Below, one piece after another: positions 4,264 to 44,437 of a stretch of 64,000 bases of DNA. This DNA comes from Candidatus Bathyarchaeota archaeon (GTDB lineage: Archaea > Thermoproteota > Bathyarchaeia > TCS64). Numbering within the stretch: position 1 is the stretch's first letter; each line of letters begins with the position of its first letter. The notes under the pieces were generated by a model that did not search any database, was not told where the DNA came from, and worked only from the letters and a program-made list of their open reading frames with translations. Both the position numbers and the translations under genes were made by a program. The stretch is from NCBI GenBank assembly GCA_963769425.1, contig CAVYLP010000006.1:480001-544000 (forward strand), in the 5' to 3' direction.

Positions 4264-4553
4264 AGCTCAACATAATCAAGGAAGAGGAAGGCTACGTCGA
4301 GGTGGAGTTTGGTGGCGAGAGCCACACGCTCCTCAACCTCCTGCAGTCGAGCCTCCTAGAGGACCCCGCCGTCGAGATGGCGGGCTACACACGTCCACAC
4401 CCCCTGATGGACAGGAGCAGGCTCTTCATCAGGTTCAAGGGGAAGAAGGCGAACCCGATGGAGATACTAAAGAAGGCAGCGGATAACGCCGAGGCTAAGC
4501 TTAATGAGTTTGACGAGGGCCTGAAGAAGGGCGTCTCCACCCTTAAGAAGTAA
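4260..4553 (+). CDS. rpoL: DNA-directed RNA polymerase subunit L (Rpo11)
   Basis: GESHTLLNLL..L..DP.V..AGY..PHPL signature; 4-nt overlap with csl4. Confidence 0.95.
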   Translation: MKLNIIKEEEGYVEVEFGGESHTLLNLLQSSLLEDPAVEMAGYTRPHPLMDRSRLFIRFKGKKANPMEILKKAADNAEAKLNEFDEGLKKGVSTLKK

Positions 4554-4580
4554 ACAGCCCATCTTATTATCGAAGGTAAC

Positions 4581-5066
4581 TTGACCCTTCAGAGGCTACG
4601 CCAGATCAAGAGGGAGATCAGGGTACTAGGCGTGGCTGCTAGGCAAGGCTCCGACGGCTTCACCATCGTCGGTGTAGTCTACAGAGGAAATCTTTGGCTC
4701 GACGGTGTTCTGAGGGCGTACTCCGAGGAGATGGACATCACCGACGCTCTCGCTAAAATGCTCTTCGATTCGCCTCACGCTGGGCAGGTCCGAGTAATAA
4801 TGCTGAGCAAGGAGAACCTACCTAAAGAGGTTCGCATCTCCCTTGAGGAATTAAGCACGAAGACGGGTAAGCCCGTTATCTTGCTGGGCGATATAGTAGG
4901 AAACATCTTCACGTGGAATAGTGGTGATGAGAAAGTAACCTTTTCCGTGGTGGGTCTCAGCCGCTGGTCCGCCGAAGGGGTCCTGAGGGCGTCAACGCGC
5001 GAAGGAGTCATCCCGGAGGCCCTACGGGTGGCCGCCTTGACACTATCCGCGCTACCCGACGGGTAA
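4581..5066 (+). CDS. DUF99 family (endonuclease V-like) protein, divergent
   Basis: IK.EIRVLG, VGVVYRG..WLDGV, QVRVIML, IPEALRVA; usual position between rpoL and tfs. Confidence 0.8.
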   Translation: MTLQRLRQIKREIRVLGVAARQGSDGFTIVGVVYRGNLWLDGVLRAYSEEMDITDALAKMLFDSPHAGQVRVIMLSKENLPKEVRISLEELSTKTGKPVILLGDIVGNIFTWNSGDEKVTFSVVGLSRWSAEGVLRASTREGVIPEALRVAALTLSALPDG

Positions 5067-9009: not shown

Positions 9010-9062
9010 AGCCGTGGATCAGGTTCCGATATCTCCTGTAGGATCGAGTCATGAATGCTGAC
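9010..9062 (-). other. 3' arm of the 23S pre-rRNA processing stem (pairs with 12063-12111)
   Basis: GAAGCCGTG..CAGGTTCCGA..GTCATGAATGCTGA is complementary to TCAGCATGAC..TCGGAACCTG..CACGGCTTC. Confidence 0.75.
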
Positions 9063-9065
9063 ATT

Positions 9066-12058
<2,993 letters not shown>

Positions 12059-12245
12059 TATATCAGCATGACCCGGTCCCACAGCTGGAGTCGGAACCTG
12101 TGCACGGCTTCATAGCCTCTTCGAGGGATTCCATCCCCCCGTGGCTCGCCCTTAGCCCCGCGAGCTGTGCTCGGGAGCCGCATATTGTGAGATTGATTTG
12201 GGTCGGGTAGTTACTTCCCCCGCATTCACTGCGTCGTTCTTTCTT

Positions 12246-13743
<1,498 letters not shown>

Positions 13744-28288: not shown

Positions 28289-29545
28289 GTGGTAATACTG
28301 ATGAAGTATCTGACATTAGAGGATGTCTTAGATTATCAGATTGGTTGTACGGCCCTCTCGACGGGGGGCGGAGGCGTCGCGCCCTCCCTTGAGGAGGTAG
28401 AGGCGATGGTCCAGAAGGTCCTGGACGAGGGGCACAAGCTGAAGTTCATCGATCTGAAGGAGGTGCCCGACGAGGAAATCGTGTTCTCTGCCTGCGGGAC
28501 AGGCGGCGGCATCCAGACCCCGATGAAGATGAAGTGGGTGGCCAACCCTAGGAGCAAGCTCACTCGGGAGCCTAGGTATAAGATCGATTGGAGCGCGAGA
28601 CTGAGGGACCAGATAATGCAGGCGGACAGAGAGTGGTGCCCGCTTAACACTTGGTCCCAGATACCCGATGCCAACTTCCAGGATAACACCGAGAAGAGGC
28701 TCTCGCAGCTCGTCGGCCGTGAGTCATACACGAACGTGCAGTTCGAGGTCGCGCCCGGGTTCGTGAGCCAGCTCCTTGCCATGGCTAGGAAGGACAAGCC
28801 CTTTGTCGACGCCACCGTCGTCGGCCACAGGGCGGCCCCCGAGATAAGCCAAAATGGGCTCAACCTCGAGAACGTCAATTGCACCCCGGCGGTCTGGACC
28901 ACGATTATGGGGGACTTGCTCGTCTGCGAGAGGGTGCTCTGCTTCCAGAGGATGGAGGAGCTCGTCGAGGGCATCTCAATATACTCCGGCGGCTCCATCA
29001 GGGGCCTGCACGCGGTGAGGGGTAGCGACATGAAGAGGTCCGCCTTCCCCGGCTCCGAGTCCCTCGCCATGAAGGTCGGCAAGGGCATCAGGGGTGCCCT
29101 GAAGAAGGGCGCGCCCCCAGCCGACGCGGCGCTCAAGGCCCTCGGCCCGATAGGCTTCAAGCTCTTCGAGGGGGAGATATTCGACTTCTGGCAGGACGAG
29201 GAGTACTCATTCATGACGGGGACGACGAAGATAAAGGGCACCGACGCCTACGCGGGGCACGACCTGCGCATCTGGTTCAAGAACGAGAACCACCTCTCTT
29301 GGCTCGACGGCGAACCATACGTCACGAGCCCAGACGGTATAAACGTCGTCGACTCCGAGACGGGATGGGGCCTCGCCAACTTCTGGTCCGCCGAGTGGGA
29401 GCCGGGGAGGAAGGTCACCGTACTCGGCGTCGAAGCCGAGAAGAGGTGGGAGACGCCCATGGGCCTCAAGCTCTTCGGCCCCCGCCACTTCAGGACGGAC
29501 ATCCAGCACGTCCCCATGAGGAAGGCGTACAGGGAGTTCAGCTAG
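28289..29545 (+). CDS. DUF917 family protein
   Basis: G...L.TGGGG, RAAPE, LFEGEI, FKNE...PD.I, FGP..F. Confidence 0.8.
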   Translation: MVILMKYLTLEDVLDYQIGCTALSTGGGGVAPSLEEVEAMVQKVLDEGHKLKFIDLKEVPDEEIVFSACGTGGGIQTPMKMKWVANPRSKLTREPRYKIDWSARLRDQIMQADREWCPLNTWSQIPDANFQDNTEKRLSQLVGRESYTNVQFEVAPGFVSQLLAMARKDKPFVDATVVGHRAAPEISQNGLNLENVNCTPAVWTTIMGDLLVCERVLCFQRMEELVEGISIYSGGSIRGLHAVRGSDMKRSAFPGSESLAMKVGKGIRGALKKGAPPADAALKALGPIGFKLFEGEIFDFWQDEEYSFMTGTTKIKGTDAYAGHDLRIWFKNENHLSWLDGEPYVTSPDGINVVDSETGWGLANFWSAEWEPGRKVTVLGVEAEKRWETPMGLKLFGPRHFRTDIQHVPMRKAYREFS

Positions 29546-29663
29546 CCTGTCACCCATCAAACTCCATCGTAGCAAGAAAAACTCGCAAAACGGCCTAAAC
29601 TGGAAAAATGACTAAAATAACCTGAATCGCGTTGTTGTTACTACTATCCCAACCATGCGTTAG

Positions 29664-30794
29664 GGTGGTCGGTGTGCCGTTCGTAGTATTTCGATTTGAA
29701 GATATACTTTCATTTTAAACATAGCGACAAACCGACAAAGACCTAATCATAGGAAAAATATTATCAGACCGAAATCGGGTGACCAAACAAAAGGTCTAGG
29801 AAAAGAATGGCAGAAAAACTACGAATACTATCTAAACATAAATAAACTCCTAAAAAAATAACGAGGCCAAAATATATTCCCATTATCAATTCAGAACCCG
29901 GAAAATGGTTGATTAGAAGAAGGAGATAGTTCTAGAGCCTTTAGAATATTATATATTCTTGAGAAAATATTGTTTATTCCTAAGAATATTAATCAATATT
30001 TCTACACTAAAAAAAATAATATTTTATACATTTATTGAGGTTCCAATGAATATATTGGGACGCAATAAAACCGCTGTGTATTATTCCCTTAAATATAAAA
30101 ACGGGTGTGCTACCCGAGCCCTCTGAGCATATATGGATCAGATATTAGCCAAACTCAGCTGTCATATTTAGCGGAAAAATTGACAAACCTTTTAGAGGGA
30201 TTCAGAAACATCAAGAAAAATGAACAGGGACTCCACTCCCGGTCACGAGGTATCATTCCAGAGTACAATGAGAAAAAACCCTTGTTTCGGGAAAAAAGAC
30301 TCGTTTGTCAAAAAAGAGCCTTTTTATAAAATGCCACAAGAGGTTGTTTCTCTCCCAATTTTTAGGATCTTGTACTCGAGCTTGGAGCCAGCTTCTTGGG
30401 TGAATTTGCATGATTATAATTACCTTTTCTTCTCAGTGTAACTGTAGATCCTGCTATCCTCCCTGTAGCCTGGTATAGACCACTCTATCTTATGCACCTA
30501 AGCATAGTTCCCATAGGCTATCGCCAAATTCCTCTTGTAACCCTCATTCCTCTCAAGCCTAGCCAGAAACCCTCGATCTGACTCAGGATCAGAGAGATCG
30601 GCATTCTATAAGAGTGCCTTCAGGAGATTGGCGTTGTTTCTAATTGTGTCTTCTCTAAGCCCCTTCTTCCTCATCTCCACAGAACTTGGAAAATCTTCTG
30701 ATCTAGAAGTGATCTAGATTCAGATTCCTAAGTGTAGTCGGTATTCCGGTAAACGGTCGGTATACCGTTGTAGGTGGTCGGTGTGCCGGTCGTA
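29664..30794. mobile_element. Decayed integrative element inserted at the 3' end of rnpB, bounded by 22-bp direct repeats
   Basis: GGTGGTCGGTGTGCCG(T/G)TCGTA at 29664-29685 and 30773-30794 (21/22 identical); AT-rich interior; integrase relic. Confidence 0.75.
30420..30700 (-). pseudogene. Tyrosine recombinase/integrase N-terminal relic
   Basis: QKIFQVLW/MRKKGLREDTIRNNANLLKALL*NADLSDPES..FLA...NEGYKRNLAIAYGNYA*VHKIEW..P.Y resembles the N-terminus of archaeal integrases; two TAG stops; no catalytic domain. Confidence 0.65.
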
Positions 30795-31082
30795 ACCCAC
30801 CTTCTGTTCTAGGCGGCATTCAGCTATACGGGCTACCCGCGCCCCCTGCAGGAGGGACCCGGCGCCTATTCGCCCTTTCACCCCGCGGGTCGGCCGTCTC
30901 AACCCTGCCACCCGGCGTCCTCGCCCCTGACCGGGGCTCACAGCATTTGCCGGGGGAGGTACCGTTTCTGTCCGGAGCCGACGCTCTCGCGCCACGCCTC
31001 GCGGCGTCGCGGTCCTGCTCGGTGGATGGAGTTTCCTCAGACCCTTGCGGGCCCGGCGGCCGCTCACCGGCTCACCGACCAC
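30774..31082 (-). ncRNA. rnpB: RNase P RNA (archaeal type A)
   Basis: P1 GTGGTCGGTGAGCCGGT/ACCGGCACACCGACCAC; GAGGAAACTCC, ACAGAAAC and AACAGAAGGTGGGTTA conserved regions; TTATA box ~31105-31109. Confidence 0.95.
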
Positions 31083-31126
31083 GTGACAAGGGAGAAACGG
31101 GCTCTATAAGCCTACCTGAGGAGCTT

Positions 31127-31852
31127 TTACTGGTTGCAGCCGCAGGGGTCCCTCATCTGCTTGCCCCCCAGCATGATGTTCTGGCCGAAGCGGTCCCTCT
31201 TCGCCTCGAAGTATCGCTCGTTGAACTCCGTCACCTCCGCCTGGATGGGTATGATGTCCCTGATCTTCACTCCGTATCTCCTCAGTGCCTCCACCTTCGC
31301 CGGGTTATTCGTTATGAGGCGGATGTCACCGACGCCCACCTTCCTCAGCATCGCGGCGGAGACCTCGTAGTCCCGCTCGTCGGCGGGCAGCCCGAGGGCT
31401 ATGTTAGCATCGTATGTGTCGAGGCCCTTGTCCTGAAGCTGGTAGGCGCGGAGCTTGTTCGTGAGCCCTATCCCCCTCCCCTCCTGCTGCATGTAGATGA
31501 GGACGCCGAGCCCCTCCTCCTCGATCATCGTCATGCTCTTCCTGAGCTGTGGGCCGCAGTCGCAGCGGAGGCTGCCCAGCGAGTCCCCGGTGAGGCAGCT
31601 GCTGTGGACCCTCGTTAGGACACTCTCCTTGCCCGAGACGTCCCCCTTGACGACCATCGTGTGGTCTTTCCCATCCTTGTTGTTGGTGAAGCCGATTATG
31701 TGGAAGCGCCCGAAGAGGCTGGGTAATTCCGCCACGGCGACGAGTTGGACGCAGAGCGTCTTCGTGCAGCTGGCGCAATCCCACTTCAGTGGACACGTCT
31801 CGTGCTCCGCTGCGTCCACGTCGAGGACCCGGTGATAGCTGAGCTCCTCCAT
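31127..31852 (-). CDS. ribA: GTP cyclohydrolase II
   Basis: RVHSSCLTGD..GS.RCDCG.QL, QEGRGIGL.NK, TNNP.K. Confidence 0.95.
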   Translation of the reverse strand: MEELSYHRVLDVDAAEHETCPLKWDCASCTKTLCVQLVAVAELPSLFGRFHIIGFTNNKDGKDHTMVVKGDVSGKESVLTRVHSSCLTGDSLGSLRCDCGPQLRKSMTMIEEEGLGVLIYMQQEGRGIGLTNKLRAYQLQDKGLDTYDANIALGLPADERDYEVSAAMLRKVGVGDIRLITNNPAKVEALRRYGVKIRDIIPIQAEVTEFNERYFEAKRDRFGQNIMLGGKQMRDPCGCNQ

Positions 31853-43819: not shown

Positions 43820-43895
43820 TGGAGCCGGGCGAGGGATTCGAACCCCCGTAGAGCTGCTCTGCAGGCAGCCGCCTAAACCGCTCAGCCAACCCGGC
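43820..43895 (-). tRNA. tRNA-Cys(GCA), intronless, CCA encoded
   Basis: Cloverleaf GCCGGGT..GCCCGGC-T-CCA, anticodon loop CT-GCA-GA, GTTCGAATC, U73. Confidence 0.95.
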
Positions 43896-43948
43896 GCGCA
43901 AGAGAGAAAGGAGAAGGGGGCTGAATATAACTTTTCAGCTACCCGATC

Positions 43949-44284
43949 TCAGTGCGCCTTCGAGGTCTTACGGATAAGCTCGACGGCCTTCTCGTCGCCG
44001 TGGCGGGCTCTGTACGCTTCTATCCCAGCCCTGTAGACGGCACTCCTCCTCCCCTCGGGGTCGTTCGGGTCGAACATCTCCACGAATTTGTCGCAGGGGA
44101 ACTCACCGCAGGCGCCGCAGTGCTTCGCCTTGTGCTCCTGCGCGCAGGTGTAAGTCGGGCATGTCCCCCAGAAGGGCTTGCCCTTGATCTCCGTGCAACC
44201 AGCGCAGCTCGGCTGCTTTTCCCCCGTGTGCCACTCGCATGAGCCACAATCTAAGCCGCATGGACTCATCATCGTTTTAGTCAT
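43949..44284 (-). CDS. DUF3795 family Cys-rich protein
   Basis: CGLDC..C, C.GC, C..Y.C, CG.C.EFPC. Confidence 0.85.
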   Translation of the reverse strand: MTKTMMSPCGLDCGSCEWHTGEKQPSCAGCTEIKGKPFWGTCPTYTCAQEHKAKHCGACGEFPCDKFVEMFDPNDPEGRRSAVYRAGIEAYRARHGDEKAVELIRKTSKAH

Positions 44285-44358
44285 AACAACACCGATCGCC
44301 TTGAGGCTTGTCGGTTTAAAAGTGGTTCGAATAATCGTCAACTGGTGTTGGGTGAATG

Positions 44359-44437
44359 TGGTGGGACCGCCCGGATTCGAACCGGGGACCACGCGGGCCC
44401 AAGCCGCGTATCTTAGACCAAGCTAGACCACGATCCC
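44359..44437 (-). tRNA. tRNA-Pro(TGG), intronless, CCA encoded
   Basis: GGGATCG..CGGTCCC-A-CCA, anticodon loop CT-TGG-GC, GTTCGAATC. Confidence 0.95.

Follow-up and report, generated by a model that had tools for sequence, protein, structure and literature searches.

Does the repeated 3′ end of an RNase P RNA gene mark the place where a mobile element once entered an archaeal chromosome? Bathyarchaeia are an abundant group with few members in culture, and the question is raised by a 64,000-nt stretch of DNA from Candidatus Bathyarchaeota archaeon (GTDB lineage Archaea; Thermoproteota; Bathyarchaeia; TCS64), referred to here as the window (GCA_963769425.1, contig CAVYLP010000006.1, positions 480,001–544,000 of the forward strand). 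[quoted passage not shown] We followed this proposal through the genome from which the window was taken (G000, 2,551,316 bases) and through related genomes, whose assemblies are mostly fragmented and incomplete, so that misjoined contigs among them are possible. In the labels, G stands for a genome, C for a contig, L for an extracted locus, f for a host family and P for a protein.

The rnpB gene of the window is intact. The Rfam model RF00373 matches it from model position 1 to 288 without truncation, at 177.3 bits as against a gathering score of 84 (Table 1). The 22-mer GGTGGTCGGTGTGCCGGTCGTA, which is the reverse complement of the 3′ end of RNase P RNA and thus corresponds to the last 22 nt of the gene, recurs at a distance of 1109 bp with a single mismatch (G to T at 29680), just as the sequence-only reading had it. 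Within the Rfam model, 14 of the 22 nt form the 3′ strand of helix P1, and the next 7 nt (30774–30780) can pair with 31076–31082, which lengthens P1. Inside the gene, the base change at 29680 would disrupt a G–C pair of P1; the copy attached to rnpB retains this pair. With up to three mismatches allowed, the 22-mer has two matches in the window, a number reached by none of 100 dinucleotide shuffles, and the same two matches are the only ones in the whole genome, where the reversed pattern used as a control has none. It is therefore not a common dispersed repeat. The att of the window also aligns with eight other att copies, with a common core TACG..CC.GCACACC..CCA.C. Having the rnpB 3′ end repeated directly on either side of the insert while the gene is whole is a feature of insertion into the 3′ end of a stable-RNA gene, and it is present here.

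Table 1. Features of the rnpB locus and its host flanks, in window positions
Feature	Position	Strand	Basis or remark
S-Me-THD family host gene (PF06032/PF20906), flanks the distal att	28289–29545	+	Pfam, E 1.6e-39 and 1e-13
Distal att copy, displaced rnpB 3′ end	29664–29685		One mismatch to the 22-mer
AT-rich remainder, no recognisable gene	29686–30440		GC 25–44%
Integrase pseudogene fragment, first 78 codons, N-terminal domain only	30441–30674	−	BLASTP against P0002
Integrase-proximal arm, att to integrase start	30675–30772	−	Alignable with the arms of G013, G009, G008, G185 and G077
att copy adjoining rnpB	30773–30794		Exact 22-mer
rnpB, RNase P RNA gene, intact	30774–31082	−	RF00373 on 30781–31075, plus a possible 7-bp P1 extension
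GTP cyclohydrolase II host gene, 5′ side of rnpB	31127–31852	−	Pfam, E 1.5e-63

The DNA between the two att copies differs in composition from its surroundings. Measured in 200-nt steps from 29600 to 30799, GC content is 25–46%, against 57–70% on both sides, and for the insert as a whole it is 38% compared with 60% in the flank, which bears out the AT-richness that had been noted. On the minus strand, the frame running downward from 30713 encodes an integrase-like N-terminus with five stops; two TAG codons (30606–30608 and 30498–30500) lie inside the homologous part and more stops follow beyond it. Compared with P0002, an intact 282-aa protein of G013, which is a member of the window's genus, the fragment has 37 of 78 residues identical by BLASTP (47%, E 1e-23), and tblastn gives E 1.4e-17. 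This match contradicts the possibility that the fragment has no integrase homology. It covers residues 1–78 of P0002, and Met-14 of the fragment aligns to Met-1, which defines the fragment given in Table 1; the stop-riddled integrase N-terminus that had been read at 30420–30700 is thus confirmed in kind and narrowed in extent. By itself, the fragment has no match in Pfam or PHROG and only a chance match in the PDB (E 1.3), so that its identity depends on the intact homologues in relatives. When 79 genomes of the same order were searched in six frames, two matches stood out, G013:C172:772–1047 (E 1.3e-21) and G009:C78:6906–7178 (E 9.6e-21), both of which are in long open frames directly 3′ of rnpB and in the same orientation as in the window. 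The fragment represents the N-terminal (core-binding) part of these PF00589 family members; its homology stops after 78 codons and the PF00589 catalytic domain is absent. The window copy is a pseudogene of the tyrosine integrase family and not a working member of it.

The integrase stub begins 99 nt past att. Three direct repeats of GTCGGTRT lie within 48 bp (at 30737, 30756 and 30777, the last one within att) and are putative integrase-binding sites; across the window this motif has seven matches, a count that is reached in 8 of 100 shuffles and is not significant. The remainder of the insert (~750 bp) is matched in neither blastn nor tblastx by any of the other loci that were fetched (~685 kb, 134 loci before the window's own five were dropped), and its 73–74-aa ORFs match no Pfam family. 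When 71 genomes of the family were searched with the DNA of 29686–30772, only the window itself and the 5′ part of the G009 integrase (66% identity) were found, so that the 1.1-kb spacer is not one common to all relatives. We conclude, with a probability of about 0.9, that this 1.1 kb is the decayed remnant of an integrative element that was put into the 3′ end of rnpB by a tyrosine integrase. The attL/attR-like layout that had been proposed is supported by what can be seen directly, namely the repeat, an rnpB that is whole, an insert of foreign composition, a stub with integrase homology, and relatives in which intact integrases and bounded elements have the same layout; from these we infer the recombination event, which of the att copies is derived from the element, and the path of decay.

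Intact integrases that adjoin rnpB, accompanied by a duplicated rnpB 3′ end, were indeed found in relatives, where the sequence-only reading had suggested looking for them. P0002 and P0003, the 282-aa proteins of G013 and G009, are 74% identical and match PF00589 at E 8e-19 and 2e-16, respectively, as do seven further rnpB-linked copies (1.7e-22 to 1.6e-18). P0002 aligns with XerA/XerC-type recombinases through the LRH..AT (box II) and GH...T..Y (catalytic Tyr) regions, and its relatives at E ≤1e-15 are present in 198 of 401 Bathyarchaeia genomes. We scanned 29 loci for RNA genes, comprising the 28 best-scoring integrase loci across the class and one metagenome contig. At seven of them, a full rnpB in the same orientation ends 48–105 nt ahead of the integrase start (G396, G077, G142, G229, G301, G363 and G173); together with G013 and G009, this gives nine genomes, from families f1, f11, f27 and f29, in which an intact integrase follows rnpB. 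A tRNA gene (Ala, Thr or Gln) occupies the same position at nine scanned loci. The integrase follows the end of a protein gene at two scanned loci, a conserved sequence of unassigned nature at three, and an rnpB-tail fragment without rnpB at two (G185:C19 and G177:C6).

We then built a tree of 30 integrases, made up of the best P0002-relative loci and the tRNA-linked G012 copy; L111, which is cut by a contig end, and extra copies without a recovered locus were left out. A branch with support 99/99 separates all 11 rnpB-linked integrases, nine beside a full rnpB and two beside a tail fragment, from the tRNA-targeting relatives. The target labels were assigned from the RNA-gene scan, and two of the 12 tRNA labels (L120 and L125) rest on a T-arm-like 3′ end with no tRNA call. 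Inside the rnpB-linked branch, host families f1, f11, f27 and f29 are intermixed, and the window fragment is closest to two congeneric members (G013 and G009). These intact relatives show that one branch of archaeal integrases uses rnpB, instead of a tRNA gene, as its landing site.

These results bear on whether the integrase-like gene could be a resident, vertically inherited recombinase that lies beside rnpB by chance, with the 22-nt repeat being an unrelated local duplication. The solved structures nearest to P0002 are XerA/XerC-type chromosomal recombinases (PDB 4a8e and 5hxy, E 1.9e-11 and 7.5e-11), and position and orientation beside rnpB are constant in several families, as a resident gene would have it. 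Xer proteins, however, act at dif to resolve dimeric chromosomes, and no target repeats bound them, whereas the integrase gene here occurs sporadically, within foreign DNA and in association with att duplications. An integrase or its remnant is found beside rnpB in only 4 of 28 rnpB-matched genomes (G000, G008, G009 and G013), the segments have a foreign GC content and are bounded by rnpB-tail repeats, the host families are intermixed in the tree, and the sister branches sit at tRNA 3′ ends in the manner of mobile-element integrases. We consider a resident recombinase highly improbable.

Several features of the integrase loci were noted alongside. In all 11 rnpB-linked copies (L096–L103, L109, L113 and L118), the integrase frame is open from its start back through att, and in the nine copies beside a full gene it reaches into rnpB. 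Five copies (G013, G009, G396, G185 and G077) have an F-x-V-L-W motif just before the aligned Met, and three (G009, G185 and G077) have CTG or CTC in place of ATG; given this and the open upstream frame, the true start codon of the integrase is uncertain. L104 (G353), L106 (G233) and L107 (G189) form an integrase branch of their own (support 100/100) and have in common, over the ~100 nt before the integrase start, the sequence GGGGTCTG...CAGACTGGGACGGC..CATCATCCCCC. This sequence lacks a conserved ORF and any Rfam match at E ≤0.1, and may be an undescribed small RNA gene that serves as attachment site. The window's genome contains a second integrase N-terminal stub (C1:92620–92832; L033 1480–1737), 85 aa long and 31% identical to the window fragment, which lies ~60 nt after a tRNA gene (L033 1348–1421); at the corresponding position behind a similar tRNA gene, G012 carries an intact integrase (L038). 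A frameshifted integrase converges on rnpB in L146 (G351:C14, 2259–2986), and the last 25–31 integrase codons directly follow both att copies in L139 (G201:C6, 8435–8509 and 3187–3279).

Several of the integrases that follow rnpB belong to bounded elements. A distal copy of the rnpB tail lies 6.6 kb downstream in G396 and 4.9 kb downstream in both G142 and G363, and G077 has three further copies, one of which is weak. The flank of the distal copy on the side of the element (AATTACTAAGG...) is common to G396, G142, G363 and G185, which come from three host families. In G009, three att copies bound a 5.6-kb element (42% GC), which, besides the integrase, encodes an HSDR_N-domain protein and ORFs of unassigned family, and a 1.3-kb remnant whose first bases resemble the integrase start. 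G185:C12 carries a tandem arrangement that runs from rnpB through att, an integrase, 5 kb of DNA and a second att to a second integrase, up to the contig end, and G185:C19 has the order element arm, att, integrase, which could be either an attP or a tandem junction. With intact integrases after rnpB in nine other genomes and bounded elements of 4.9–6.6 kb, the existence of a class of elements that targets rnpB, which had been suggested from the window alone, is supported.

The elements of G396, G363 and G301 share a protein of 325–344 aa with invariant W-S-P-H-x-H and Y..L.H, which may be HUH and Tyr motifs, and a Cys-rich region. It has weak leads as a putative rolling-circle Rep_1 protein: its matches to Pfam Rep_1 (PF01446) are non-significant (E 0.13–0.53) and feature-atlas matches to Rep_1 clusters score 0.96, the PDB contains no sequence match, and the structure predicted for the 344-aa protein has a pLDDT of 35.8, too low for use. 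Other cargo includes a complete TBP gene (PF00352, E 1e-61) and an AAA_15 ATPase in G142 (L128, G142:C44; 14856–15410 and 16182–17252), RNase III-like, EVE and MFS genes in G077, HEPN in G301 and a collagen-repeat protein in G396. No capsid gene was recognised in the intact elements. In G008 (L064, G008:C29, 1–7510), the 7.5 kb between the rnpB tail and a second copy contains only cell-type genes (lipoate-protein ligase, flavin reductase, FMN reductase, pyridoxamine-oxidase-like and ferredoxins) and follows a stub of about eight integrase codons (IFQVLWEM), and an att-bounded segment of G039 likewise carries only cell-type genes, AFOR and ThiS, and no integrase, so that not every duplication is a simple element. 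A different arrangement is seen in L063 (G036:C6), where two full-length but divergent RNase P RNA genes (4531–4851 and 9927–10205; 192 and 198 bits, 77% mean column identity) lie on one strand 5.4 kb apart. The DNA between them has 62–66% GC, compared with 50–56% in most of the flank on one side, and none of its ORFs has a family; the arrangement could come from an element that carries a whole rnpB, or from a misassembly.

A degenerate rnpB-tail motif, TACNNCCRRCAYRCCRRCC, was used to survey the class. It is present in 150 of the 401 Bathyarchaeia genomes, with two or more copies in 35, whereas the reversed motif matches once in all 401. The distal copy in the window is itself uncounted, since the motif allows no change at the base that is mismatched there, and 35 of 401 is therefore a lower bound. 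Many of the pairs are on one contig and strand, 0.5–18 kb apart. We fetched seven pair loci: in five, the first copy belongs to a full rnpB and the next one lies 0.72, 0.74, 1.3, 5.5 and 9.5 kb downstream, and the other two are cut by contig ends. In G339, rnpB is followed by three more tail copies. Among the 25 genomes whose rnpB loci were examined first, a further forward copy was found in five (G000, G009, G008, G015 and G039).

Att-bounded segments without an integrase recur at rnpB (0.72 kb in G394, 0.74 kb in G219, 1.3 kb in G341, 0.5 and 1.06 kb in G339, and the 1.3-kb remnant B of G009), which, along with the nearly intact state of both att copies in the window, raises the possibility that the segment in the window is a non-autonomous miniature element or cassette that can still be excised or moved in trans by the integrase of a related element. 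We regard this as improbable. A search of the window's genome with P0002 gave two matches only, the better one at E 7.7e-23 compared with E-188 for P0002 in its own genome (judged by score alone); the distal att is mismatched, and an integrase stub with stops resembles decay rather than design. Contigs of sequencing runs aligned to the locus had no joint across the segment either, though the strain is poorly represented in every run. A decayed integrative element accounts better for these observations, and the relic in the window is a fossil, unable to move by itself.

We also asked what the DNA around rnpB says about the site before insertion. The genes 5′ of rnpB (GTP cyclohydrolase II and an MFS transporter) are syntenic across the genus, with GTP cyclohydrolase II homologues upstream of rnpB in G002, G015, G003 and G013. 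The 3′ side is different in every genome examined, and the first 45 nt differ in almost all of them. None of the genes downstream in the window is next to rnpB in the other loci, and only in G015 is a homologue of the 26569–27423 gene found, ~11 kb downstream of rnpB. Some contigs stop 5–14 nt after rnpB (G010, G030 and G032; loci L003, L011 and L012) and others 230–317 nt after it (G003 and G007; loci L015 and L008); strain-variable insertions at the site may be a cause of these breaks. An empty site, in which rnpB abuts the gene that flanks the distal att, had been named as something to look for in relatives. This gene carries PF06032, presumably the former DUF917. When its end and the adjoining spacer were searched in 18 genomes of the genus, five matched and none of the matches was beside rnpB in the expected layout. 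As the gene adjoins rnpB in none of the 17 congeners, the distal flank is at most a candidate for the original flank of rnpB.

Junctions were sought in public sequence data. The best sequencing run contained a 0.14 share of the sampled words of the stretch, and no run reached half. Contigs of four runs were aligned on 29300–31200 and gave no joint, a result that is neutral on excision; loose contig ends at 30773–30792 are merely where similarity to the rnpB of other strains stops. No relative of P0002 was detected in viral contigs. In metagenomes, the search with P0002 led to a single 3.2-kb contig (L094), whose integrase is 89% identical and which is cut ~80 nt before the integrase gene, so that no att is visible. 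Neither a recombination event nor an excised circle was seen for any member in viral contigs, metagenome contigs or run contigs.

The same data speak to the idea that the layout arose in assembly or binning, perhaps through a chimeric join of contigs at conserved rnpB sequence. The genomes of the group are largely metagenome assemblies and many contigs of relatives break at or just past the rnpB 3′ end, both of which could favour such a join, but the window comes from 480–544 kb of its contig and host genes flank the segment on either side, an unrelated public run contains two 151-nt contigs identical to 30367–30517 and 30604–30754, and the same layout is present in many independent assemblies. 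An artefact is thus hardly credible. Elsewhere, the window contains a 16S–23S rRNA operon (9054–13743, minus strand) and tRNA-Cys and tRNA-Pro genes (43820–44437), all of them ordinary.

The insertion at rnpB would have proceeded as follows. A tyrosine integrase would have catalysed site-specific recombination, within at least the final 22 nt of rnpB, between the copy of the rnpB 3′ end carried by the element (attP) and the chromosomal copy (attB). Such a recombination leaves rnpB complete and carries the former 3′ end off to the other side of the insert, and the 3′ strand of P1 would thereby have been rebuilt from element DNA. The integrase gene would have started ~100 nt after att, reading away from rnpB. 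Later, all but the first 78 integrase codons, which have since acquired stops, and some AT-rich DNA would have been lost.

The 3′ ends of tRNA and tmRNA genes are classic integration targets of mobile elements. Williams, in 2002, reportedly described tyrosine-integrase islands and prophages (P4-type and others) at these ends. The rnpB insertions resemble them in that a direct repeat of the gene 3′ end bounds the insert, the gene is rebuilt whole and the integrase lies beside att, and also in their foreign composition, tandem arrays and decayed remnants; here, however, the target is the RNase P RNA gene and the host an archaeon of the Bathyarchaeia. Archaeal integrases are divided into SSV-type (type I) and pNOB8-type (type II), and in type II the integrase gene stays intact on integration. 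The integrase ORFs described here likewise are intact when integrated and start after att, which is a likeness in layout. The known archaeal type II examples target tRNA genes, to our knowledge, whereas here the target is rnpB and the elements are small (~5–6.6 kb). Because the ORFs run open from rnpB into the integrase, we also considered an SSV-type split integrase and rejected it. Integrated copies keep the whole integrase ORF of 281–289 aa, and the SSV feature of an attP inside the ORF is absent. The frame through att differs between elements, and the integrase frame has a stop immediately before att at the G185 junction, which shows that the elements are not of the split-gene type.

We know of few reports in which stable RNA genes other than those for tRNA and tmRNA are targets. 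The closest parallel is Enterococcus phage phiEf11, which integrates into ffs, the 4.5S RNA gene, and was published in 2025 as using a novel non-coding RNA target (PMC12540744). In both systems, the att core of a tyrosine integrase lies within a stable, essential RNA gene that is not a tRNA gene, and in phiEf11 it is 74 nt from the end of the integrase gene (PMC12540744); the two differ in RNA, in domain of life and in integrase lineage. In the introduction of that article, the RNA targets named as known are tRNA/tmRNA and csRNA, and rnpB is not among them (PMC12540744). Sites are classed as tRNA/tmRNA, protein-coding or intergenic in the accessible portion of the Islander/TIGER work, which does not name rnpB (PMC12424338). 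The main texts retrieved in a full-text literature search do not describe rnpB as an integration site; this search covered articles without their supplements, and the TIGER/Islander island tables might list such sites. RNase P is not mentioned in two articles on Bathyarchaeia viruses and genomes. The mechanism is thus the known tRNA/tmRNA type of integration, and the target, rnpB in an archaeal class, is new as far as the literature was searched.

A wider picture can be proposed tentatively, and we would put it at slightly less than an even chance. The rnpB 3′ end may be a class-wide landing pad with an integrase branch of its own, into which 5–6.6-kb elements, possibly rolling-circle plasmids, insert repeatedly, stack in tandem and decay to integrase-less cargo segments bounded by rnpB tails, with metabolic genes, defence-like ATPases and a TBP gene among the cargo. 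This would be a somewhat integron-like platform on an essential ribozyme gene, with each att tracking the P1 sequence of its host.

The copy in the window is itself a mere fossil of the process of integration at rnpB. With a dedicated integrase branch at rnpB in four or more families of Bathyarchaeia, archaea gain a further class of integration target. The branch also makes rnpB a new anchor for island-finding tools, by which such islands are otherwise classed as intergenic, and insertions at this site may account for the frequent breaking of Bathyarchaeia assemblies just past rnpB. As natural integrase/att pairs at a gene that every archaeon must keep, these systems could aid the development of genetic tools for these archaea.
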